NCBI GenBank assembly: GCA_040903985.1
Contig: JBBDUI010000002.1
Span: forward strand, 671,469 to 735,468
Direction of reading: 5' to 3'
Length of the DNA: 64,000 bases
Origin: Candidatus Saccharimonadales bacterium
Lineage (GTDB): Bacteria; Patescibacteriota; Saccharimonadia; QS-5-54-17
Below are positions 1,923 through 44,896 of the stretch, piece by piece; the first letter of the stretch is position 1; every line of letters begins with the position of its first letter. Under the pieces are notes generated by a model, which saw only the letters and a program-made list of their open reading frames with translations, was not told the DNA's origin and made no database searches. The position numbers were made by a program, and so were the translations under genes.

Positions 1923-3156
1923 TCGTCTCTTACTCGCTAAACAGCCGATGTTCGATCGTACCATCACTCAACTGGAGGCTCAGACTCATAACCGTTCGAT
2001 CGATGCGGCGCTAGTAGCCGAGCTGCTGCATACGGCACATGCTAAGATGCGCGTCCTGAAGCTGGATCCGGCCGATACCACCGGACCTGAGCTATATCGC
2101 ACTTTAGTTAACACCGTAGCTACTCATGACGAACATCTGGCGCGGGAGCTGGGCGGTGTAAATACTAGTGATATCCGCGAGATGGTGCCCTTAATAGTTA
2201 AGCGCATCGAGCAGCTTGATATACCACGGGATGGCTGGTTCTTAAAGCATGAAGTAGCGGAGCAGATGCTACTTCGTATGCCGCCTAAGACAATCATGGC
2301 TAAGCTAGGCTATACCAGCGCTAAGCAGATGATGAAGGAGGAGAATCTGTATGAGATTTACGGTGCTTTGCGATTTGCTGAGAAGGCCGATTGGCTGAAT
2401 GAGTACAACCAACAGTATGAGACCTTAACGGCGTCTGACTTCGAACCACGCCGGATCGAGGTGGTGCAGTTCGATGCGGATAAGTGGGGAGATATAGCCT
2501 CCCATTTCATCGAGAAAAAACTGCACAACATCACTCATCTTAAAGAACTGGGAGTGATCATGACCATGCCGGTACTCGGTTCACAGCCGATGCCAGGCAT
2601 TACGCTCAAGGTAATGCCCCTTATTCTACACTACTTTAATGAGATTCGACTCTATTCAGCTTTCTTCAAATTAATGCGCGAAAAGAAAAATTTCGGCGAG
2701 ATCTTCGTCAACACACTGATAGCAGACCCTTCGCCGGTTGAGGTTACTCAAGGTGAATTTATCCACTGGCGGGTAATCCAACGCTATTTCGGTAAGCTCA
2801 AAGACGAGTATCATCCAGAGATGTTCGAGCCACACGTTCAGCCCGAGGATCTGCACTGGCGAAAAGCCGAGGATATTCTCTATGAGGTCGACCCCGAGCT
2901 CGAGTTTTGGCGAGAGCTCGACTACGTCGGGTTGTTTATGAATGATGACGAGCCGGTAACCTTCAACCTAATGGATGTCTCACTCAGCTATTCAAATCAG
3001 TTAGAGTTTGAAGACCGCTACCTGTATCACTTCCGGGAGTCGTTGTGGAACGAGGTGTTTGTGCGTTATCTAGGGCAGAAGAATCTCGAAGATCGTATCC
3101 TTAAACGCCTCGACAACGCCCTGATCGCGCCAGAGACGATTACCGACTTCAAGTAA
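1915..3156 (+). CDS. hypothetical protein (413 aa), translationally coupled to the upstream kinase
   Basis: Long intact ORF that overlaps the kinase stop by 8 nt. I recognise no domain in it. Confidence 0.55.
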   Translation: MLSRLLLAKQPMFDRTITQLEAQTHNRSIDAALVAELLHTAHAKMRVLKLDPADTTGPELYRTLVNTVATHDEHLARELGGVNTSDIREMVPLIVKRIEQLDIPRDGWFLKHEVAEQMLLRMPPKTIMAKLGYTSAKQMMKEENLYEIYGALRFAEKADWLNEYNQQYETLTASDFEPRRIEVVQFDADKWGDIASHFIEKKLHNITHLKELGVIMTMPVLGSQPMPGITLKVMPLILHYFNEIRLYSAFFKLMREKKNFGEIFVNTLIADPSPVEVTQGEFIHWRVIQRYFGKLKDEYHPEMFEPHVQPEDLHWRKAEDILYEVDPELEFWRELDYVGLFMNDDEPVTFNLMDVSLSYSNQLEFEDRYLYHFRESLWNEVFVRYLGQKNLEDRILKRLDNALIAPETITDFK

Positions 3157-9864: not shown

Positions 9865-10146
9865 ATGGCTAACGCTAAAACTCCGAGCGAGAAAGACTAT
9901 GCCCGTCTCGGCAAGACACTTGAGAAAGTGCTCCTGCAGTATAATTTACAGGTTACGCGTCACTGGGGTAAGTTTATCGCACTTAGTTTTGTCCGGGGTC
10001 TTTTTATGGGTCTAGGTAGCATTATCGGCGCTACCTTGCTAGTAGCACTCATCGTTTGGTTACTTAATATTTTTGGTGGTCTACCGGTTTTCGGTGAGTG
10101 GTTCGATGCTCTGCGCGAATCGATCCGGCAATCTTCGACTTCCTAG
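9865..10146 (+). CDS. small membrane protein (93 aa), third gene of the DUF948/YtxH cluster
   Basis: Intact ORF with a central TM helix, in tight spacing with the two preceding genes. Confidence 0.5.
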   Translation: MANAKTPSEKDYARLGKTLEKVLLQYNLQVTRHWGKFIALSFVRGLFMGLGSIIGATLLVALIVWLLNIFGGLPVFGEWFDALRESIRQSSTS

Positions 10147-25353: not shown

Positions 25354-27477
25354 TTGCCGATGTCCAGCTGTATAGTAGGAGCTGTTATTTATGCTAGAGA
25401 GGTTACCTTGAAGAATGCATTCCTCGGTCCGGTAGACGAACTGCGTTTCGGACAGTATCGGCCGGAAATGGTAAAAGAGTCTCTGGATGCGACCGAAGCG
25501 GTCGCCTGGAAACGAGTTGAGCAGTTGCTGGCGTTCGAGACAGGCGCACGCACGATCGAGAATACCCTCCTAGCTCTATATCGGGCGGCCGAAGAGTTCA
25601 ATGCAGTCGTCAGTATTTGCTCTCATCATATGAGTGTACTGGGAAAAGAGTGGAACGCTCCGGCTCAGCTAGCCTCCCAACGTGCGGCAGCTTACAGTAA
25701 TGAGATCAGTTTTCACGAGGGTATCTATAAGGCACTGGTAGAGCTTAGGGCACGCCGAAACTATCTAGCCACAGTTTCTGCGCCTCGGCGAAAGCTACTG
25801 GATGAGACGATTCTTGACTACGAACGGAACGGGATAGCTTTAGCGCCGAAAAAGCGGAGCGAGCTAAAATCGATTCGTGCAGCTCTCGATGCGGCTACCA
25901 CTATGTTCGATCAGAACGTCGTCACCGCGACAGACGAGGCCGAGCTACGGGTAGAGACTAAGCAGGACCTGGCCGGTCTGGATGAGGAGTTTATCATTGA
26001 GTGCGCCCAGGCAGCTAGCGGCGAGGATAAAGCGAGCTACCGGATCGATTTTAATCCGCCTAATTACATCAAAGTTATGTCCGAGTGTCAGGTGCGTGCT
26101 ACCCGACAACGGATGTATCATCTATCGATTCAGCGCGCAGCGGAGTTAAACAGAGATCTAGCTAAAGAGATCTTAACTTTGCGCCGTCGCCAAGCCCAGC
26201 TGCTCGGCTATAAGCACTATGCCGATTTTGTCCTCGAAGAACGCATGGCCGACAAGGGCGTAGTAGCGTGGCGATTTATCACTGAGCTAGCGCAAAAGTA
26301 TCGCCGCCAGGCTGGGGCGGAATTTGCCGCGCTGCAGCGTTTCGCCCGCGACGATGAGGCTAATCCAGAGCTGGTACTGGACGCGGCAGATATCGATACC
26401 GGACTGAATTTCTACTATGCCCTCCGCCTCCAGAAGCAGAACTCAGGGTTGGATCAAGGCACCATTAAACAGCATTTTCCCTTGGCGGCAGTGCGGGACT
26501 ATATGTTTGCGACCCTTACTACTCTATATGGGTTAAGGTTTTCACTCGGTGATCAGTCGACTTGGCATGAGGACGTTGAGGTATATGAAATCAGTCGGGC
26601 CGACGGAAGTCATATAGCGACCGTTTGGTGCGACTGGTACGCCCGCAAAGGTAAAAAAAGCGGCGCTTGGATGAATAGCTACTATGTGGCTGACCGGGCT
26701 GGAGGGGTAGTTAGTAAGCCGCATTTAGGTTATGTAGTCACTAACTTCGACCCGCCCCGAGGAGCTAAACCGAGCCTGCTGTCACTGCAGGATGTCGAGA
26801 CGCTGTGGCACGAGTTCGGGCACTTTATCCATCTTGCGACCGGCGAGACAGAGCTGGAAGAGCAGTCGATGATGAGCTGTAAGTGGGATTTCGTCGAGGC
26901 ACCGTCGCAGATTATGGAGAACTGGGTGTGGCAGCCGGAGATTTTAGCCGGTATGTCGCGACACTACCTTACCGGCAAGCGACTATCAGACCGGCAGGTA
27001 GATACGTTGATTAGGGACAAAAACTTTATGGTGGCCTCTAAGGCGATGCGGCAGTTTGGTCTCGCCACAGTCGATTTATCCCTACATATCGATTTCGATC
27101 CTATGAAGGACGAGGATGTATTAGCCTACGCTCGGTCGGTTAAGGCTAACTTCTTGCCAGTAGAGGTCTACGCTGAAGATAGTTCGATCACCACCTTCTC
27201 CCATATCTTTGCCGGCGGTTATGCCGCCGCCTACTATTCATACAAGTGGGCCGAAGCGATCGAGGCCGATCTCTTTTCTCGGTTTAAGGAGGAGGGAGTA
27301 CTCAACCCACAGACCGGTACCGACTATAGGCGTCTGGTCTTGGCCCGGGGCGACGAGGTAAACCCTCAAATATTGATTAAAGATTTCCTGGGCCGTAGCA
27401 GTAGTAGTGCCGCTATGCTAGAGCGTGATGGTATAGGAGTATCTACGGGCACCTCGAGTGATGAGGCGGTGGATTGA
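25354..27477 (+). CDS. M3-family zinc oligoendopeptidase
   Basis: 707 aa with an HEFGH zinc motif (LWHEFGHFIHL) and a downstream Glu ligand region. Confidence 0.8.
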   Translation: MPMSSCIVGAVIYAREVTLKNAFLGPVDELRFGQYRPEMVKESLDATEAVAWKRVEQLLAFETGARTIENTLLALYRAAEEFNAVVSICSHHMSVLGKEWNAPAQLASQRAAAYSNEISFHEGIYKALVELRARRNYLATVSAPRRKLLDETILDYERNGIALAPKKRSELKSIRAALDAATTMFDQNVVTATDEAELRVETKQDLAGLDEEFIIECAQAASGEDKASYRIDFNPPNYIKVMSECQVRATRQRMYHLSIQRAAELNRDLAKEILTLRRRQAQLLGYKHYADFVLEERMADKGVVAWRFITELAQKYRRQAGAEFAALQRFARDDEANPELVLDAADIDTGLNFYYALRLQKQNSGLDQGTIKQHFPLAAVRDYMFATLTTLYGLRFSLGDQSTWHEDVEVYEISRADGSHIATVWCDWYARKGKKSGAWMNSYYVADRAGGVVSKPHLGYVVTNFDPPRGAKPSLLSLQDVETLWHEFGHFIHLATGETELEEQSMMSCKWDFVEAPSQIMENWVWQPEILAGMSRHYLTGKRLSDRQVDTLIRDKNFMVASKAMRQFGLATVDLSLHIDFDPMKDEDVLAYARSVKANFLPVEVYAEDSSITTFSHIFAGGYAAAYYSYKWAEAIEADLFSRFKEEGVLNPQTGTDYRRLVLARGDEVNPQILIKDFLGRSSSSAAMLERDGIGVSTGTSSDEAVD

Positions 27478-27582: not shown

Positions 27583-28824
27583 ATGGACGGAACGATGGAC
27601 ACCAAACAATTTATTATGACGATGAAACAGATCGCCGAGGAGAAGAATCTGCCTTATGAGGTAGTTGAGGATGCTCTGCAGCAAGCGATTGCGGCGGCTT
27701 ATCGTAAGGATTATGGCGAGCGGGAACAGAACGTGCGAGCCGAGCTAAACGCTAAGACCGGTGAGTTCACTATTTTCATCGTCTATGACGTAGTCGATGA
27801 GGTAGAGGATGAGTACACTCAGCTTGATCTAAAAAGCGCTCAGCAGAAAGACAAAATGGCCGAGGTCGGAGGCGTGGTTGAGGAGCAGGTTAGCTACGAC
27901 GGCTTCGGTCGGGTAGCCGCTCAGACCGCCAAGCAAGTTATCCTACAGAAACTGCGGGAAGCTGAGCGCGACGTTGTGTTCGCTGAATACCAGGACAAAG
28001 TCGGGACCATCCTAAACGGTACCGTACAGCGGGTCGAGCCGCGGGTGGTCTATATTGATGTCGGTAAGGCCCAGGGTATCCTACCCCAATCAGAACAGAT
28101 TCAGGGTGAGCATTATCGTGCTACTCAGCGTCTCAAAGTCTACCTTCGTGAAGTAGAGAGTTCACCCCGCGGACCGCAGTTGATTCTCTCCCGGGCTACG
28201 CCAGATTTCGTCGCGTTGCTCTTTGCCCGAGAGGTGCCGGAAATGGAGAGCGGTGCGGTTGAGATTCGGGCAATTGCTCGTGAGGCCGGCGTGCGCACTA
28301 AGCTAGCGGTTGCCTCTACTGTGCCGAATGTCGATCCGGTCGGTACCTTTGTTGGTGGTCACGGTACCCGAGTGCAAGCCGTCATGAATGAAGTTGGTGA
28401 GGAAAAGATCGACATCATCATGTTTGCTGAAGACACCGCTACTTTCATCACTAATGCACTGGCGCCGACTCAGATTAAAAACGTCAAGCTAGATGAAGCC
28501 GAGCAACGTGCTATCGTCGAAGTGGCCGAAGACCAGCTCTCAATTGCGATCGGTAGAGCCGGTCAGAACGTTCGCTTAGCTTCAAAATTGACCGGCTGGC
28601 AGATCGACATCATTAGTGAAGGTGGAGAACTGCGTACGCAATCTAAACCGGCTGAGCCAATAGTTAAGCCGGAGCTAGATGCGACCGCTGCTACTAAGAA
28701 GCCGGCCAAATCGGTACCAGAGAAGACACCGGAACGGAAGAAGAAATACGTCACTAAGGCCCAGCTGGAAGCTTCATTACTGGAGTCACTCAGCAACGGC
28801 AGCGATGCCTCCGAGGAAGAGTAA
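27583..28824 (+). CDS. nusA: transcription termination/antitermination factor NusA
   Basis: N-terminal NusA domain, S1 and KH regions (GGHGTRVQAV). An AAGGAG RBS is present. Confidence 0.9.
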   Translation: MDGTMDTKQFIMTMKQIAEEKNLPYEVVEDALQQAIAAAYRKDYGEREQNVRAELNAKTGEFTIFIVYDVVDEVEDEYTQLDLKSAQQKDKMAEVGGVVEEQVSYDGFGRVAAQTAKQVILQKLREAERDVVFAEYQDKVGTILNGTVQRVEPRVVYIDVGKAQGILPQSEQIQGEHYRATQRLKVYLREVESSPRGPQLILSRATPDFVALLFAREVPEMESGAVEIRAIAREAGVRTKLAVASTVPNVDPVGTFVGGHGTRVQAVMNEVGEEKIDIIMFAEDTATFITNALAPTQIKNVKLDEAEQRAIVEVAEDQLSIAIGRAGQNVRLASKLTGWQIDIISEGGELRTQSKPAEPIVKPELDATAATKKPAKSVPEKTPERKKKYVTKAQLEASLLESLSNGSDASEEE

Positions 28825-28851: not shown

Positions 28852-28878
28852 TTAGCACTCTTGACCATTGAGTGCTAG
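28852..28878 (+). promoter_or_regulatory. CIRCE element (HrcA operator) overlapping the -35 of the clpC promoter
   Basis: TTAGCACTC-ttgaccatt-GAGTGCTAg matches the CIRCE consensus TTAGCACTC-N9-GAGTGCTAA at 17 of 18 positions. It is followed by TATAGT. Confidence 0.7.
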
Positions 28879-28946
28879 CTGGCCTATAGTAGAAAGTGGT
28901 GACAGCCGTGACGATTCGATACAATATATAGGTATAGGGGGTCCAT

Positions 28947-31442
28947 GTGGACGAGCAATTTTTTGAAGATAATTTAACTGAAAATGCGCAAGCTAGCTTG
29001 GCTCAGGCGAATGAGATCGCTCGAGCGTTGGGTAGCACTTATATTGGCACCGAACACATTCTACTTGGTGTGTTGCGTCAGAATAGTTCTATAGGAGCTA
29101 AGGTATTAAAAAACTCCGGCGTAACCTTTGACAAGGCGCGTTTAGCGCTGAGTTTGACCCCGAAGTCACTACAGAATCTCGAGGGCCAAACCCTGACTTC
29201 TCGAGGTCTGAACGAAACAGCTAAGTTAACGTTAACGCTGTCGTGGAAAATCGCCCGAGATTTCGGACAGAAGATGTGCGGTACTGAACACATTCTATTT
29301 GCCACTCTGAGTCAGAAGAATACACGGGCTACCATCTTGCTCCGCGATATGGATATCGACTTAAGTGAGGTGCGCGAAGAGCTACAGGAATATTTGCGCA
29401 ATCAGCAGTACCACTATGAAGAACACACAAAACAGCGACGAGCTCGGAAGAAGAGTAAGACACCAACTTTGGATTATTTCGGTATAGATCTAACCGCGCA
29501 GGCCGAGGCCCGCAAATTGGATCCAGTAATCGGTCGCAGTGGTCAGATTCAGCGTATGGTGACGATCCTTAACCGGCGGACTAAGAACAATCCGGTTCTA
29601 ATCGGTGACCCCGGCGTGGGTAAGACAGCTATTGTAGAGGGTTTGGCACAGAAGATAGTGACGGAGGATGTGCCCCAAGATTTGCTAGATAAGCGTATCG
29701 TAGCGCTCGATCTCTCTAGTGTAATCGCCGGCACTAAGTATCGCGGTGAGTTTGAAGAGCGTTTGAAGCGGATATTAGAGGAACTACAAAGTGTGGATGA
29801 CATCATTCTCTTTGTGGATGAACTGCACTTAATCGTTGGAGCCGGTGCAGCTGAGGGGGCTATCGATGCCGGTAATATACTCAAACCGGCTCTAGCTCGC
29901 GGTATGATTCAGGTTATCGGGGCTACTACGACCGATGAATACCGTAAACACATTGAAAAAGATGCTGCCTTAGAGCGGCGCTTCCAAACTATTATCGTCC
30001 CGGAAACGACGACTGAAGAGACACTTCAGGTGCTACGGGGATTACGGAGTCATTATGAGAAGTATCACCGAGTGAAGATCAGTGACGATATCATCGCCGA
30101 AGCCGTTAAGTTGTCTCGGCGCTATCTACCCGACCGTTTCATGCCGGATAAGGCGATCGACCTGATTGACGAAACTGCGGCTCAGGTGCGGGTCTTACGG
30201 GGCAGCGAGACCGGTAGCGAGTCGCGCGAAATACGGGCCCAAATTCGAGAACTTCATACGGCCGTCGATGAGGCAGCCACGGATGAGAATTATGAGCAAG
30301 CTGCTCGCCTGAAGACCGAGATTAGTATGCTGGAGCAGAAACTAGAGCGGCAGGAGGCGGCCGAGGCTAGAAACGGTGAAGTACTAGAAGTGACCGATGA
30401 AGACTTGGCCGAGGTGATCTCGACCATTACCGGTGTACCGCTCAAGCGGTTAGTTAAGTCGGAAGCTCGTCAGTTAATTAACCTTGAGCGCACCTTACAG
30501 AAGTCGGTTATCGGTCAGGAAGAGGCAGTGAATGCCGTAGCTCGAGCCATTCGTCGAAATCGGTCCGGAGTGGCCGACGCGCGCCGCCCAATCGGCTCCT
30601 TCCTTTTTCTGGGGCCTAGCGGTGTTGGTAAGACTGAGTTAGCTCGGGTACTATCGCGTGAGCTCTTCCATTCTGAGGATGCTCTGATAAAGATAGATAT
30701 GAGTGAGTTTATGGAGCGCCATAATATGTCACGCCTCTTAGGCGCACCGGCCGGCTATGTCGGTTATGAAGAAGGAGGTCAGTTAACGGAGAAGGTTCGT
30801 CGTCAACCTTACTCACTAATTCTTTTCGATGAGATTGAGAAAGCCCATCCGGATGTATTTAATATGTTGTTACAAATTCTCGAAGACGGTTCCGTCAGCG
30901 ATGCCCAGGGTCGTCGGGTAGACTTTACTAATACCGTTATCATCATGACCTCTAACATCGGTGCCGAGTGGCTACAGAAAGAAGCGGTACTTGGTTTCAG
31001 GCCTGCTACCGATGATGCGCAGGATCTTGCTGGCTATCACGAGCAGGTGGCCACTCGCGTCAAGGAGGATCTAAGTAAGCAGATGCGTCCTGAGTTGTTA
31101 AATCGGATTGATAAGATTATCGTCTTCAAGGCGCTGAGTCGTCCAGAGGTAAAGCGTATTCTTAAGTTGCGTATTACCGAGCTGGAGCGTCGCTTAAGTG
31201 AGCAAGGACTAGGCATAATCTTTACCAATAGTGCTCGTCGCCACCTAGTAGAGGCCGGTTATGAGCCAAGCATGGGGGTACGACCACTACGCCGAGCCAT
31301 TGAGGAAATGGTGGAAGACCCGATTGCTACCAAGCTCTTAAGTGATGAGTTTAGTAGTGGTGATGTCATTCGGGTCAGCGCGGAAGCTGGCGAGTTGAAG
31401 TTTAGTTTAGTGACTGAGGAAGTGGTGACTAGCAAGAAGTAA
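28947..31442 (+). CDS. clpC: ATP-dependent Clp protease ATPase subunit ClpC (Clp/Hsp100 with two AAA+ modules)
   Basis: It has Clp_N repeats and two Walker A sites (GDPGVGKT and GPSGVGKT), with a UVR-like linker between the AAA domains. Confidence 0.9.
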
Positions 31443-31513
31443 CTTCATGGCTTCTACCGACGCACTGGGGTTCAGTGCGAGCTAGTCTGCGAGTTGCTAT
31501 ACTGAAATCTATG

Positions 31514-32455
31514 AAGAGACGCATATTAGTAGTTACGGTACTAACACTATTCCTAGGACTAGCCTGGAACCACCAGGCAGTAGTGGACTGGTGGTTCTTA
31601 CGTAGTTATGATCCTCCTCAAGAGGTAGAGACGCTAGCTGATAGCTCATATTTCAGTGAGACCGGGCGGCGTCTGTTCTATCTGTCCGACCCTGCCGTGA
31701 ACGACAAACAAGAGTTTAACATCAACTGTCCGATTTTTGAGAAAAGCTATGTTTTGGGTTGCTACTCTCAGCAGCGCATATATATTCTCGAGGTAGAGCG
31801 GCAAGAGCTTGAGGGCATTATGGAGGTAACGGCGGCGCACGAGATGCTACACGCCGCCTATGATCGGTTAAGTACGCGAGAACGTGATCGCGTGGTTGAG
31901 CAACTAGAAGCGGCCTATGCTGATATCGACAACGATAAGTTACGGAGCTTAATTCGCAGTTATGAGGAGACAGGGGGTGAGAGTGTTCGTCAAAACGAAT
32001 TACATTCAATTATGGCGACTCAGGTCATCGAGTTGCCAAATGAGATAGAGACTTACTACGGTCAGTATTTCAGTGATCGTCAGGCAGTAGCCGAAATCTA
32101 CGCCGAGTACGAAGGTGTATTTAGCGAATTGAATCGTGATATAGATCGCCTGCAAGCCGAAGTCACCGCAGTGCGGGATCAGTTGGCCAGTTTGGAAGAC
32201 CAGATTGTGACTACTCGAGCTGAAGTTGATGGGCTAAATCGCGAGATGAGTCGGTTGGAGGACGAAGGCGAGATTGCGGCCTACAACCAGCTCGTCCCCC
32301 GGCAAAACGCCGCGGTTGATCGTTATAACGGCTATGTCGATCAGTATCGCGGACTAGTCAGTCGGCATAACCAGTTAGTCGATGGGCTTAACCGTACCGT
32401 GTTGTTGCAAAAGGATCTAGTCAACAGCTTGGATAGCAAGTTCGAGTCGCTGTAG
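31514..32455 (+). CDS. membrane-anchored hypothetical protein with an HEMLH motif and a C-terminal coiled coil
   Basis: The start was chosen at MKRRILVV, the signal anchor; the ORF track begins at 31475. An HEXXH-like motif (AAHEMLHAAY) and a long heptad-repeat region are present. Confidence 0.5.
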   Translation, partial: KRRILVVTVLTLFLGLAWNHQAVVDWWFLRSYDPPQEVETLADSSYFSETGRRLFYLSDPAVNDKQEFNINCPIFEKSYVLGCYSQQRIYILEVERQELEGIMEVTAAHEMLHAAYDRLSTRERDRVVEQLEAAYADIDNDKLRSLIRSYEETGGESVRQNELHSIMATQVIELPNEIETYYGQYFSDRQAVAEIYAEYEGVFSELNRDIDRLQAEVTAVRDQLASLEDQIVTTRAEVDGLNREMSRLEDEGEIAAYNQLVPRQNAAVDRYNGYVDQYRGLVSRHNQLVDGLNRTVLLQKDLVNSLDSKFESL

Positions 32456-32538: not shown

Positions 32539-33867
32539 ATGGCTAAAACGATATTCGTCTGTCAGGAGTGCGGCACTACTGCTCCGCGGTGGAGTGGTAA
32601 GTGTAGTGGTTGCGGAAACTGGAACACTTTAATCGAGGAAGTAAAGAGTGGTGGCTCTAGGGCGGGTAGTTCCGTTAGTGCGCGCGCAACGCAGAAGTTA
32701 GCTGATATCCCGGACACACAAGCCGTCGGTCGACTCGATACTCAAGTTACAGAGTTAAACAAGGTTTTCGGTGGCGGGATTGTACCCGGCAGCATCACTT
32801 TACTGGCGGGAGAGCCGGGAGTGGGCAAGTCGACTCTGCTACTGCAGTTAGCGGCTAATCTCGCTGTCAACCATAAGGTGCTCTACGTTAGTGGTGAGGA
32901 GTCACTACAACAGATTAAGCTTCGAGCTGAACGGCTTAAGCTGCGGGAGGTTAAGCTTGAGCTACTGGCCGAGATCGATATCGATACTATCGCCGCTACA
33001 CTGAAGCACGGCCAGTATGATTTCGTTGTAATCGATTCGGTTCAGACCATGCAGACCAGTGAGTTGAGTGCTAGCGCCGGTACCGTGAGTCAGATTACGG
33101 CCAGTACCCATCGTCTACAGAGTGTGGCCAAGGCCAGTCAGACCGCTGTACTAGTAGTTGGCCACGTGACCAAAGAAGGTAACATCGCCGGCCCGAAAAT
33201 TCTCGAGCATCTGGTAGATGTAGTGCTCTATCTCGAAGGTGAACGTTTTGGTAGCTTCAAACTACTGCGGGGGGTGAAGAATCGTTACGGCTCCACCCAT
33301 GAGGTCGGTATCTTTGAGATGGAAGAAGGTGGGATGGTGCCGGTAGATAATCCTTCAGCCCGTTTTCTGCAGGAGCGTGCACCTGGAGATGGTTCAGTGG
33401 TCTTGGCTACGGTAGAAGGGACCCGGGCTTTACTGGTCGAGGTTCAGGCCTTAGTGAGTACTAGCCCTTTTGGTTACCCCAAACGTACGGCGGCTGGTTT
33501 TGATCTTAATCGACTCAATTTATTAATAGCGGTTTTAGGCCAGCGGGCCGGTATAAAACTCGCCGACAAGGATGTCTATATTAATATTGTTGGTGGTATG
33601 AAGCTGGTCGAGCCGGCCGCTGACCTAGCTGTCGCACTAGCGATTGCTTCAGCCGCTAAGCGCCAGCCGCTAGTTGATGGACTGGTGGTTTTCGGGGAGG
33701 TCGGACTTAATGGTGAGATTCGTTCAGTGAGTGACACCGCTAAACGAGTGAAAGAGGCGCGGAAATTGAAATTCAAATCTGCGCTAGCTCCATCTGGCAC
33801 CAATGCAGAGTACATAGAGGCTGTGGTTACGCTCAAAGAGGCGATTAAACGAGGGCTAGTTTCTTAA
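32539..33867 (+). CDS. radA: DNA repair protein RadA/Sms
   Basis: N-terminal zinc ribbon CQECG...CSGCG, a RecA-like Walker A (GEPGVGKST), the KNRYG motif and a Lon-like C-terminus. Confidence 0.95.
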   Translation: MAKTIFVCQECGTTAPRWSGKCSGCGNWNTLIEEVKSGGSRAGSSVSARATQKLADIPDTQAVGRLDTQVTELNKVFGGGIVPGSITLLAGEPGVGKSTLLLQLAANLAVNHKVLYVSGEESLQQIKLRAERLKLREVKLELLAEIDIDTIAATLKHGQYDFVVIDSVQTMQTSELSASAGTVSQITASTHRLQSVAKASQTAVLVVGHVTKEGNIAGPKILEHLVDVVLYLEGERFGSFKLLRGVKNRYGSTHEVGIFEMEEGGMVPVDNPSARFLQERAPGDGSVVLATVEGTRALLVEVQALVSTSPFGYPKRTAAGFDLNRLNLLIAVLGQRAGIKLADKDVYINIVGGMKLVEPAADLAVALAIASAAKRQPLVDGLVVFGEVGLNGEIRSVSDTAKRVKEARKLKFKSALAPSGTNAEYIEAVVTLKEAIKRGLVS

Positions 33868-41612: not shown

Positions 41613-42893
41613 ATGACAGCTATATCTACTCAAAATTATAAGGGCGCCCGGGACTTTTATCCGGAAGAGATGCGCCTGCAGCACTATATTTTCACCACCT
41701 GGCGTCGGGTTAGTGAGCGCTACGGTTATGCTGAAGTGATGGCTCCGATCTTAGAGTTTACCGATCTCTATCGGGCCAAGACCGGAGAGGAGATTGTGAG
41801 TGAGCAGACTTACAGTTTTAAGGACCGGGGCGGCCGTGATGTGACGATTCGGCCCGAGATGACACCTTCAGTGGCTCGCATGGTGGCGGCCCGACAGCAG
41901 GAACTTAGCTTCCCGCTCCGTTGGTACTCAATTCCGAATCTGTGGCGTTACGAACGCCCTCAGCACGGTCGGCTCCGTGAACACTGGCAGTTGAACGCCG
42001 ATATCTTTGGATTAGATGATACGTCTGCTGAACTAGAGATAATTAGCCTAGCCCATGCTCTGTTGCTAGAGTTTGGAGCGACTGAGGATATGTTTTCGAT
42101 TAAGCTGAACAGCCGGGAACTGATGAGCTATATCTTAGGTGAGTACCTCTCTCTGCAGGTAGACGCAGCTCATCGGGTCGGTAAACTGCTCGATCGGAAG
42201 AGCAAAATGAGTGATGAGGCTTTTATCAATCAGGCCGATGCCATACTAGGTGCAAAGCTGGAACTATTTCTAGATTTAATTCAATCCAGCAAGCTACACG
42301 ACCTACCGGATGAGGTGCGTAACAGTCAGGCAGCTACTGAGCTGGCTGAACTGGCCCGGGCCCTACACCGTCGCGGAGTGAGCAACATTAGCTTTGATCT
42401 CACTATTCAGCGCGGTTTTGATTACTATACCGGGATCGTATTCGAGATATTCGACACCAGTCCAGAGAACCAGCGCTCACTTTTTGGTGGCGGTCGCTAC
42501 GATGATTTACTACAGATCTTTAAATCACCACGCGTTCCTGCCGTCGGTTTCGGGGTGGGTGATGTGACAATGGCTGATTTCCTGCAAGTGCATCAGCTAG
42601 TGCCTCAGCTTGATTCGGCTACAAAGGTAGCGATCGTTGCTCTAGAGCCGGAGCATAATGAGGATGCACTGGTTCTTGCTGATCAACTGCGTCAGGCGCA
42701 GATCGCGGTGGCAGTCGATACGACTGAACGCAAAGTGGGGACTAAGATTAAAGTGGCCGATAAGCAGGCAATTCCCTATGTGCTAGTGCTGGGTCCAGAG
42801 GAAGTGGCTAATCAGCGTTATAGTTTGAAAGAACTTAAGACAGGTGATGAGTTTAACGGTAGTTTAGAGCAGGTAATTGCCCGACTAAGTTAA
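41613..42893 (+). CDS. hisS: histidyl-tRNA synthetase
   Basis: The start was chosen at MTAISTQNYKGARDFYPEEM with an AGAGG RBS. Class II motifs and a HisRS anticodon-binding C-terminus are present. Confidence 0.9.
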   Translation: MTAISTQNYKGARDFYPEEMRLQHYIFTTWRRVSERYGYAEVMAPILEFTDLYRAKTGEEIVSEQTYSFKDRGGRDVTIRPEMTPSVARMVAARQQELSFPLRWYSIPNLWRYERPQHGRLREHWQLNADIFGLDDTSAELEIISLAHALLLEFGATEDMFSIKLNSRELMSYILGEYLSLQVDAAHRVGKLLDRKSKMSDEAFINQADAILGAKLELFLDLIQSSKLHDLPDEVRNSQAATELAELARALHRRGVSNISFDLTIQRGFDYYTGIVFEIFDTSPENQRSLFGGGRYDDLLQIFKSPRVPAVGFGVGDVTMADFLQVHQLVPQLDSATKVAIVALEPEHNEDALVLADQLRQAQIAVAVDTTERKVGTKIKVADKQAIPYVLVLGPEEVANQRYSLKELKTGDEFNGSLEQVIARLS

Positions 42894-42914: not shown

Positions 42915-44237
42915 GTGAATGTTAAAGTAAATCGCACCAAAGACGAAGTTGTCATTAATATTACCGCTAACACCGATGAGTTAGCTCCGACGGTTAAATC
43001 TACCTTTAACCGACTCCGCGGCAGTGTTTCTGCTAAAGGATTTCGCCCGGGCAAGGCCCCAAATAACATCATCGAACGCGAGCTAGGCGCCGAACAGGTT
43101 CAGGCCGAAGTAATCGATGCTGCAGCGGAGAAGTTTTACCGTCAGGCTTTGGTCGAACACGATATCCGTCCCATTGCTAATCCGCATGTCGATGTGAAAA
43201 AATTTGTTCCCTACACCGAACTGGAGCTGGAAGTAAAAGTAGCTGTCATGCCTGAGGTTAAGCTAGGTGATTATAAGAGTATTTCGAAGAAACCGCCCGA
43301 GGCCGAGGTGAGTAGCGTCGAGGTTGACGAAGTTGTAACTACCATTCGCGATCGATTGGCCGAACGTCAAGAAGTCGAGCGGGCCGCCCGCGAGGGCGAT
43401 GAGGTCGTAATTGACTTTCATGGTCGTAAGGACGGAGCCGATGTAGCCGGGGCTCAGGCTCAGGATTACCCCTTGCTGCTAGGTAGTAATCGTTTTATAC
43501 CGGGTTTTGAGACCGAATTAGTTGGGCTTAAATCGGGTGAAGAGAAAGTGTTTAAGATTAAGTTTCCGGTCGAATACGGTGAAGCTTCATTAGCGGGTCA
43601 GGAAGTCGAGTTCAGTATTAAGCTACATAAGGTAACTGAACTCATAGCGCCAGAAGTTAATGACGAGCTAGCTAAAAATGCCGGTCCGTTTGAGAGCTTA
43701 GCGCAGCTTCGTGACGATGTAACTGCTCACTTGAAGAGTGAGAAGGAGCAAGGGTTGCAACGAGAGTTTGAGAACACAGTGATTGAGGCCGTGGTTGAAT
43801 CAGCCAAAGTCGAGTTACCTCAGAGCATGTTGGCTGCTGAACGCGAACGCATCGCCGCCGATTTCGACCGTAGCCTTACCGAGCAAGGTCTAACTGAGGA
43901 TGAGTACCTCAAGCAAACCAAACAGACTGAGAAGCAACATCAGTCTGCTTTGGATGAGCAAGCCGAGCGGCGGGTTAAGACTGCCCTAGTACTAACTACT
44001 GTAGCTGATGCTGAAGCTATCGAGATCACCCCGGAAGAGTTGGAGATCAGATTGCAAGTGTTAGCCGGTCAGTATCAAGACGAGAAAGTTCAAGCCGAGC
44101 TACAGAAGCCGGAAGTCCGTCGTGAGATTGCTAACCAGATGCTAGCCGAGAAGACGGTAGCTAAGCTAGTAGAATATGCTACCGGCGTACCCGAGTCTGA
44201 CCAAGCGGATAAATCTACCTCGCCTAAGACCAAGTAG
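42915..44237 (+). CDS. tig: trigger factor
   Basis: GTG start. N-terminal ribosome-binding domain with the GFRPGKAP motif, an FKBP-like middle and a C-terminal arm. Confidence 0.9.
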   Translation: MNVKVNRTKDEVVINITANTDELAPTVKSTFNRLRGSVSAKGFRPGKAPNNIIERELGAEQVQAEVIDAAAEKFYRQALVEHDIRPIANPHVDVKKFVPYTELELEVKVAVMPEVKLGDYKSISKKPPEAEVSSVEVDEVVTTIRDRLAERQEVERAAREGDEVVIDFHGRKDGADVAGAQAQDYPLLLGSNRFIPGFETELVGLKSGEEKVFKIKFPVEYGEASLAGQEVEFSIKLHKVTELIAPEVNDELAKNAGPFESLAQLRDDVTAHLKSEKEQGLQREFENTVIEAVVESAKVELPQSMLAAERERIAADFDRSLTEQGLTEDEYLKQTKQTEKQHQSALDEQAERRVKTALVLTTVADAEAIEITPEELEIRLQVLAGQYQDEKVQAELQKPEVRREIANQMLAEKTVAKLVEYATGVPESDQADKSTSPKTK

Positions 44238-44256
44238 AGGTAAGGAGTGGGTAGTT

Positions 44257-44283
44257 TTAGCACTCTTGACTCTGGAGTGCTAA
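44257..44283 (+). promoter_or_regulatory. perfect CIRCE element (HrcA operator) overlapping the -35 of the clpP promoter
   Basis: TTAGCACTC-ttgactctg-GAGTGCTAA equals the CIRCE consensus. TTGACT lies inside it and TACAAT lies 18 nt downstream. Confidence 0.75.
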
Positions 44284-44302
44284 GGTAGCTACAATTAATA
44301 CT

Positions 44303-44896
44303 ATGATTATGCCCACTAACCAGATTCTAATACCCACAGTGCTAGAGAAAACGCACAACGGCGAGCGAGCCTATGATATTTACTCGCGCCTACTAAAAGA
44401 CAGCATCATCTTTCTTGGTACTGCAATCGATGATCATGTCGCTAACCTAGTGGTAGCGCAACTGCTGCACTTATCTCATGAGAACCCGAAGAAAGACATT
44501 AAGCTTTATATTAACAGCCCGGGCGGTAGCGTCAGTGCTGGGATGGCGATTTACGACACGATGCAGTTTATTAAACCGGCCGTATCTACTATTAACGTCG
44601 GTATGGCGGCTAGTATGGCGGCGATTTTGCTAGCTGGTGGTGCGCGTGGTAAGCGCTTAGCTTTACCACACTCGCGGGTGATGATTCACCAACCTTCACA
44701 TGGTTTCGAAGGCACAGCTTCCGATATAGAGATCAGCGCTCGGGAGACTATCCGCATTAAGGAAGAGCTGATTAAGCTGTTTGCTAAGGATACTAAAAAG
44801 ACAGTAAAGACCGTTGAGCGCGATATGGATCGTGACAAATGGATGACAGCCGATGAAGCGCTTAAGTACGGGGCTATCGACACGATCATTAAATAA
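44303..44896 (+). CDS. clpP: ATP-dependent Clp protease proteolytic subunit
   Basis: The sequence [22 protein letters not shown]...[19 protein letters not shown] contains the Ser/His/Asp triad context. Confidence 0.95.

Follow-up and report, generated by a model that had tools for sequence, protein, structure and literature searches.

CIRCE operators enclosing the -35 elements of clpP and clpC point to HrcA control of the ClpCP protease in Candidatus Saccharimonadales

The 27-nucleotide inverted repeat upstream of clpP in this Candidatus Saccharimonadales DNA is very probably a CIRCE operator for the repressor HrcA, set into a sigma-70-type clpP promoter. Together with a twin operator-promoter at clpC, it would bring both halves of ClpCP under joint regulation with the chaperones. 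The stretch analyzed, hereafter the window, spans 64,000 nucleotides and has a GC content of 51%; the positions of its relevant features are collected in Table 1. The operator reads TTAGCACTC TTGACTCTG GAGTGCTAA and matches the CIRCE consensus used here (TTAGCACTC-N9-GAGTGCTAA, 18 defined positions) at 18/18 positions, which bears out the perfect CIRCE claimed in the first-pass annotation of this DNA. It lies 5' of clpP in the same direction as the gene, 19 nt past the tig stop codon and 19 nt before the clpP start. The window ClpP is 100% identical to P0001, a protein named ClpP of Candidatus Saccharimonadales by NCBI. The NCBI start call is 44309, an ATG two codons downstream of the start used here.

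Table 1. Positions of operators, promoter elements and genes in the window, of the clpP upstream regions in syntenic relatives, and of short HrcA proteins (locus names mark sequences outside the window)
Feature	Position	Strand	Description
nusA	27583-28824	+	TIGR01953, 387 bits; upstream neighbor of the clpC operator
clpC CIRCE	28852-28878	+	TTAGCACTC TTGACCATT GAGTGCTAG; 17/18, mismatch at the last base
clpC promoter	28861-28890	+	-35 TTGACC (28861-28866) in the CIRCE spacer; 18 nt; -10 TATAGT (28885-28890)
clpC	28947-31442	+	831 aa; class I Hsp100 ATPase, ClpP partner
gene between clpC and radA	31475-32455		326-aa coiled-coil/membrane protein
radA	32539-33867	+	TIGR00416, 530 bits; downstream of clpC, one unknown gene between
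tig	42915-44237	+	trigger factor; TIGR00115, 371 bits; upstream neighbor of clpP
clpP CIRCE	44257-44283	+	left arm 44257-44265, spacer 44266-44274, right arm 44275-44283; consensus match
clpP -35	44266-44271	+	TTGACT; promoter scan; inside the CIRCE spacer
clpP -10	44290-44295	+	TACAAT; promoter scan; 18 nt past the -35, 6 nt past the CIRCE, 7 nt before the ATG
clpP	44303-44896	+	197 aa; NCBIfam NF001368, 308 bits (cut-off 249)
L246, clpP upstream			ClpP identity 80%; TTAGCACTG TTGACTTGC GAGTGCTAG, then TACAAT; 2 mismatches
L248, clpP upstream			ClpP identity 77%; TTAGCACTA TTGCTCTAA GAGTGCTAA; 1 mismatch
L254, clpP upstream	2434-2460		ClpP identity 74%; decayed right arm, TTAGCGCTC-N9-ATCTGCTAA; 4 mismatches
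L255, clpP upstream	2475-2500		ClpP identity 70%; no CIRCE; clpP lies 26 nt past tig and has a Shine-Dalgarno sequence
L256, clpP upstream			ClpP identity 64%; symmetric variant TTGGCACTC TTGACTGCA GAGTGCCAG, then TATAAT; 3 mismatches
short HrcA, L072	3432-4142	-	one of 16 examples (L072, L181 and 14 other loci; proteins P0121-P0360) from Saccharimonadales and other CPR
short HrcA, L181	2350-3084	+	as above

The promoter elements of clpP are interlocked with the operator. The -35 hexamer TTGACT had previously been placed within the left half of the repeat; it actually opens the 9-nt spacer, filling its first six positions immediately behind the left arm. The accompanying claim that TACAAT follows 18 nt downstream was upheld by an independent promoter scan, which was blind to CIRCE and scored the promoter at 10/12 consensus matches. 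The right arm of the CIRCE occupies the promoter spacer between the -35 and -10 elements.

At up to three mismatches, the window holds two CIRCE matches, compared with 0.03 expected from 100 dinucleotide-preserving shuffles, none of which gave two. With two sites found, one of them perfect, a chance palindrome is excluded. A relaxed pattern, TAGCA-N15-TGCTA, gave three further matches (10017-10041, 27396-27420 and 42044-42068), five in total against 2.3 expected, and these were rejected as probably due to chance. The first of them falls in the spacer upstream of dnaE.

The second CIRCE, overlooked by the earlier reading of the window, precedes clpC, so that each clp gene of the window (clpP and clpC) has one operator. 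Its promoter also shows 10/12 consensus matches in the promoter scan, and the registration of operator and hexamers is identical to that of the clpP site. Another possible clpC promoter was considered, its TACAAT (28920-28925) falling past the CIRCE and ahead of the start codon; the best -35 candidates were either weak or at an unsuitable distance, and the scan made no call. The 831-residue Hsp100 encoded here can be assigned to ClpC, the unfoldase partner of ClpP, because Pfam identifies two Clp_N domains and a UVR motif. It is colinear over its full length with ClpC of S. aureus (6EM8, E = 7e-244), ClpC of B. subtilis and ClpC1 of M. tuberculosis, and for ClpB chains the listed best stretch covers the C-terminal half only (query residues ~425-812).

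CtsR control, marked by a tandem heptad (RGTCAAA-NAN-RGTCAAA) upstream of clpP or clpC, was looked for using the box RGTCAAANANRGTCAAA. In the window, the box gave only 3-mismatch matches, 5 against 3.6 expected, and neither the tig-clpP nor the nusA-clpC intergenic region holds one; this chance level agrees with the first-pass statement that no CtsR-type heptad repeat is present. The Firmicute CtsR regulon (clpP, ctsR-mcsA-mcsB-clpC-radA and clpE) has the same targets, and clpC is likewise linked to radA there. The window differs in having CIRCE and no heptad box, and ctsR-mcsA-mcsB is not found near its clp genes, nusA being located upstream of clpC instead.

The conservation of the clpP operator was followed in relatives chosen by ClpP similarity at graded identity, blind to CIRCE, five of which share the tig-clpP-rpoB synteny. 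CIRCE is kept at clpP in three of these five, decayed in one (L254) and absent in one (L255). In L255, clpP is fused into the tig operon. The decay in L254 and the loss in L255 may reflect turnover of the regulon during evolution. No CIRCE is present at clpP in three CPR loci, one named Pacebacteria, whose synteny differs. Judging from L254, L255 and these three loci, the clpP-CIRCE association is common in Saccharimonadales without being universal there, and it does not hold for the CPR in general. A clpP CIRCE is also present at nine clpP loci that were selected by pattern. For clpC, orthologous operators occur in the nusA-clpC spacers of L153, L164, L187 and L235, and CIRCE was also found upstream of clpC in L204, L080 and L114. 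The best reading of these comparisons is that the association extends across Saccharimonadales, with ClpCP as a predicted part of the HrcA regulon, though L255 lacks the site and that of L254 is decayed.

The range of genes with this design was examined by scanning metagenome contigs for TTAGCACTCTTGACNNNNGAGTGCTA, a CIRCE with the -35 in its spacer, and scoring the first downstream ORF in a sample of 120 loci. HrcA was the most frequent product (38 loci), followed by DnaK (25 loci, 73-83% identical to DnaK of a named Saccharibacteria MAG), ClpC-like Hsp100 (10 loci, of which five share 54-61% identity with the window protein) and ClpP (8 loci, 55-60% identical to the window protein). GroES was encoded at 4 loci, Hsp20 at 3 (L154, L207 and L228, Pfam-confirmed), and GroEL and DnaJ at 1 locus each. 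The small heat-shock proteins of the Hsp20 family thus appear to belong to the HrcA regulon of the lineage. Several of the clpC and clpP loci keep the synteny of the window, nusA-clpC-radA or tig-clpP-rpoB, and the same operator-promoter design occurs in the named Saccharibacteria MAGs L007 and L058. Taking the best -10 hexamer at each site, the -10 starts 5-6 nt past the CIRCE in 83 of the 114 readable related sites, the same register as in the window. The proposal in the first-pass annotation that Clp proteolysis belongs to the HrcA regulon therefore gains support from four sides: the clpC CIRCE, the conservation at orthologous positions, the lineage-wide design and the missing CtsR box, all of which are features of sequence.

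The dnaK promoters of the lineage are more elaborate. At 24 of the 25 dnaK loci, a second CIRCE lies 18-20 nt past the first, just beyond the -10. In these pairs, one CIRCE wraps the -35, and the second has the form TTGGCA[C/A]TC-N9-GAGTGCTAA with 1-4 mismatches. The double arrangement was seen in L123, L141, L142, L144, L162, L240 and 18 other loci, all on Saccharimonadales-like contigs. The presence of a single operator at clpP and clpC, compared with two at dnaK, suggests that the protease genes would be repressed more weakly.

A different regulator that shares the CIRCE sequence could in principle bind the palindrome, and the HrcA of this lineage is indeed atypical, being short and scoring below the NCBIfam cut-off. 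We nevertheless consider this explanation, taken together with that of a chance palindrome, scarcely credible. The same motif precedes an HrcA-family gene in 38/120 sampled loci, the arrangement expected for autoregulation, and the HrcA-family protein keeps its winged-helix and C-terminal domains.

A second sample, of 120 perfect CIRCEs from a scan across phyla with the generic pattern, places this design among those of other bacteria. In most cases groES (34) or hrcA (29) lay downstream. The sole clpP case and both ClpC-type cases were from Saccharibacteria, and no clpP with a CIRCE was found outside Saccharibacteria in this sample. The other Hsp100 genes behind perfect CIRCEs were ClpB-sized and came from Clostridia, plus one from Fervidobacterium. 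The Clostridia MAGs (L025, L026, L033 and L034) and Fervidobacterium (L089) thus resemble the window in having a CIRCE before a Clp/Hsp100 ATPase gene. They differ in that the Clostridia genes encode disaggregases of the ClpB or ClpL type, with complete ORFs of ~860-870 aa; the Fervidobacterium ORF comprises at least 740 aa and its Hsp100 type was left unassigned. The position of the -35 is also characteristic, since the CIRCE spacer starts with TTGAC or TTGCA in 5/6 Saccharibacteria sites versus 2/114 of the others.

Because the -10 of clpP ends 7 nt before the ATG, the usual distance from -10 to transcription start predicts that the clpP mRNA is probably leaderless or nearly so. No Shine-Dalgarno sequence is present between this -10 and the ATG. 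Of the 11 readable related clpP loci, 10 have a distance of 6-9 nt between the -10 and the start codon, again lacking a Shine-Dalgarno sequence, so that leaderless clpP mRNAs are predicted for them too. This spacing was noted in the window and in L246, L248, L256, L215, L172, L200, L234, L210, L157 and L020, and many hrcA genes of the lineage have the same short distance.

The location of the repeat behind tig raises the question of whether it acts chiefly in RNA, as a hairpin at the tig 3' end, a terminator, a stabilizer or a structure in a read-through tig-clpP mRNA. The repeat begins shortly past the tig stop codon and can form a hairpin of 11-12 bp, part of a larger fold at -21.9 kcal/mol (z = -2.5 versus shuffles), and CIRCE has been reported to influence mRNA stability in B. 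subtilis. However, the hairpin is followed by GGTAGCTACAAT and has no T-tract, and the terminator scan found no terminator-like site between tig and clpP (44238-44302); an intrinsic terminator of tig was rejected for this reason. Moreover, the arms are held to the HrcA consensus across loci, beyond what mere pairing would demand. The same element recurs in the same -35/-10 register behind nusA as well as in front of hrcA, dnaK and hsp20, and the register of the promoter hexamers at most related sites (83/114) has no rationale at the RNA level. A mainly RNA-level role is therefore very unlikely.

We propose instead that the CIRCE acts as an operator for promoter occlusion. Its arms flank the -35, so that an HrcA dimer bound to them would bracket this element and cover the promoter spacer. 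If the transcription start is taken as ~44303, the CIRCE would span approximately -46 to -20. Bound HrcA would then block access of sigma-70 region 4 and keep RNA polymerase off the promoter. Since the CIRCE precedes the predicted start site, it would be absent from mRNA made at the clpP promoter and would work solely at the DNA level. HrcA activity would be lost under heat or unfolded-protein stress, and clpP, clpC and the chaperone genes would be derepressed jointly. For B. subtilis, the loss of HrcA activity has been tied to titration of GroEL (PMC3842655).

This mechanism requires a repressor, and hrcA, groESL and dnaK are found neither in the window nor within 10 kb on either side of it (84 kb covered). 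The 10-kb flanks contain only ribosomal operons and genes of glycolysis and the pentose-phosphate pathway. We infer the presence of hrcA in the window's own genome from its relatives. In the Saccharimonadales MAG locus L072, hrcA is followed by grpE and preceded by a CIRCE-like site, and Pfam recognizes both the HrcA_DNA-bdg winged helix and the HrcA C-terminal domain in its product. HrcA proteins of the Saccharimonadales type number in the thousands in public data.

It is conceivable that the operator is a relic, a true CIRCE by descent in a genome where hrcA has been lost or is inactive, in which case clpP would be effectively constitutive. The missing hrcA in the window and its flanks agrees with this, as does the fact that no protein from the window's own contig is among the 120 matches listed for either HrcA search; the related loci L254 (4 mismatches) and L255 further show that the site can decay or vanish. 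On the other hand, the two window sites keep 35/36 consensus positions while closer relatives already have 1-2 mismatches, which argues for ongoing selection. HrcA is, in addition, very widespread in Saccharimonadales. We therefore regard a relic operator as improbable and favor a functional HrcA site.

The HrcA of this lineage is clearly homologous to the canonical repressor but is an architectural variant, judged by alignment. The proteins encoded beside lineage-type sites have 217-252 aa, compared with 341-455 aa in other phyla. The typical protein of ~235 aa aligns with a single clean internal deletion of ~100 residues. All 16 of the 16 short HrcAs examined match an HMM of canonical HrcA in two adjoining blocks, ~4-129 and 232-341, and the part from ~130 to 231 is absent. 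Mapped on T. maritima HrcA (1STZ), the missing part corresponds to residues ~139-226, reportedly the inserted dimerizing domain (Liu et al. 2005, cited in PMC12154930). The short HrcA thus apparently lacks this domain, even though its presumed operator is a perfect palindrome.

The lineage proteins do not show the full-length HrcA architecture (winged helix, GAF-like domain and inserted dimerizing domain, with a score above the cut-off). Against TIGR00331 they score 171-184 bits in two stretches, below the cut-off of 197.2, which fits the generic name 'transcriptional regulator' that NCBI gives them. Such short proteins are not unprecedented, as the NCBIfam HrcA-family model NF003033 has only 264 positions. 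Modeling of the short HrcA with AlphaFold2, based on a shallow alignment, reached a pLDDT of 46, and the model was discarded. The lineage would offer a natural HrcA variant that still recognizes a perfect palindrome in spite of the missing dimerizing domain.

In B. subtilis, CIRCE lies downstream of the promoter. Here, unlike in B. subtilis, the operator encloses the -35. The operator consensus TTAGCACTC-N9-GAGTGCTAA itself is that of the B. subtilis type of CIRCE/HrcA system (PMC3842655, PMC545781). The predicted system also resembles the classical one in placing a repressor on sigma-70-type promoters and in the apparent autoregulation of hrcA in the lineage. It differs from it in its targets, clpP and clpC, and in the HrcA of ~235 aa that is missing ~100 internal residues. 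What appears to be new is a sensible extension, in which CIRCE/HrcA control would reach both ClpCP genes in an unstudied lineage through an operator that is itself a standard CIRCE.

The closest precedent for the target gene is S. salivarius, where clpP is under both CtsR and HrcA according to Chastanet & Msadek (2003, J Bacteriol 185:683), as cited in PMC3842655. That case concerns a Firmicute with CtsR co-control, whereas the window has no CtsR box, carries a CIRCE at clpC as well and shows a pattern that is lineage-wide. A further Clp-type target is clpL of L. gasseri, which is HrcA-regulated as cited in PMC3192767.

Mycoplasmas offer another parallel, being host-dependent bacteria with reduced genomes in which HrcA governs proteases along with chaperones. 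The M. genitalium genes clpB and dnaK also carry CIRCE. In M. pneumoniae, a CIRCE lies between tig and the downstream lon gene (PMC7737663), so an AAA+ protease gene follows tig with a CIRCE between them, as in the window. The difference is that the protease there is Lon, not ClpP/ClpC, and that the lineage is that of the Mollicutes.

Members of the Patescibacteria, Saccharibacteria among them, are ultrasmall epibionts whose genomes of ~1 Mb encode very few regulators. To our knowledge, almost nothing is known of their transcription control, and our full-text literature search found no paper that connects Saccharibacteria or Patescibacteria to HrcA or CIRCE, nor any report of HrcA binding or derepression in Saccharibacteria. 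The conserved CIRCE at clpP and clpC therefore provides a concrete, testable regulon for one of the few transcription factors of Saccharibacteria, and predicts joint induction of the ClpCP protease and the chaperones. Genetic tools for Saccharibacteria exist (PMC10633639), which makes deletion of hrcA or mutation of the operator feasible.

The lineage may represent a case of regulon take-over, with CIRCE in place of clp control of the CtsR, ClgR or sigma-32 type; its HrcA appears to fill the role played by CtsR in Firmicutes, ClgR in Actinobacteria and sigma-32 in Proteobacteria. More tentatively, and with somewhat less than even confidence, we suggest that a minimal HrcA of ~235 aa, devoid of the canonical inserted dimerizing domain, could by itself govern the entire proteostasis network as its one master regulator (DnaK/DnaJ/GrpE, GroES/EL, small heat-shock proteins and ClpCP) in Saccharimonadales and partly in the wider CPR. 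It would act through lineage-typical operators whose spacer contains the -35 and which often control leaderless genes, with repression graded between the two operators of dnaK and the single ones of clpP and clpC. If this is true, roles that are elsewhere split among HrcA, CtsR, ClgR and sigma-32 would be merged in one stripped-down repressor. A report on TM7x transcriptomes (10.1101/2022.03.25.485537) describes clpB and clpP as rising together, which lends weak backing to HrcA control of clpP.
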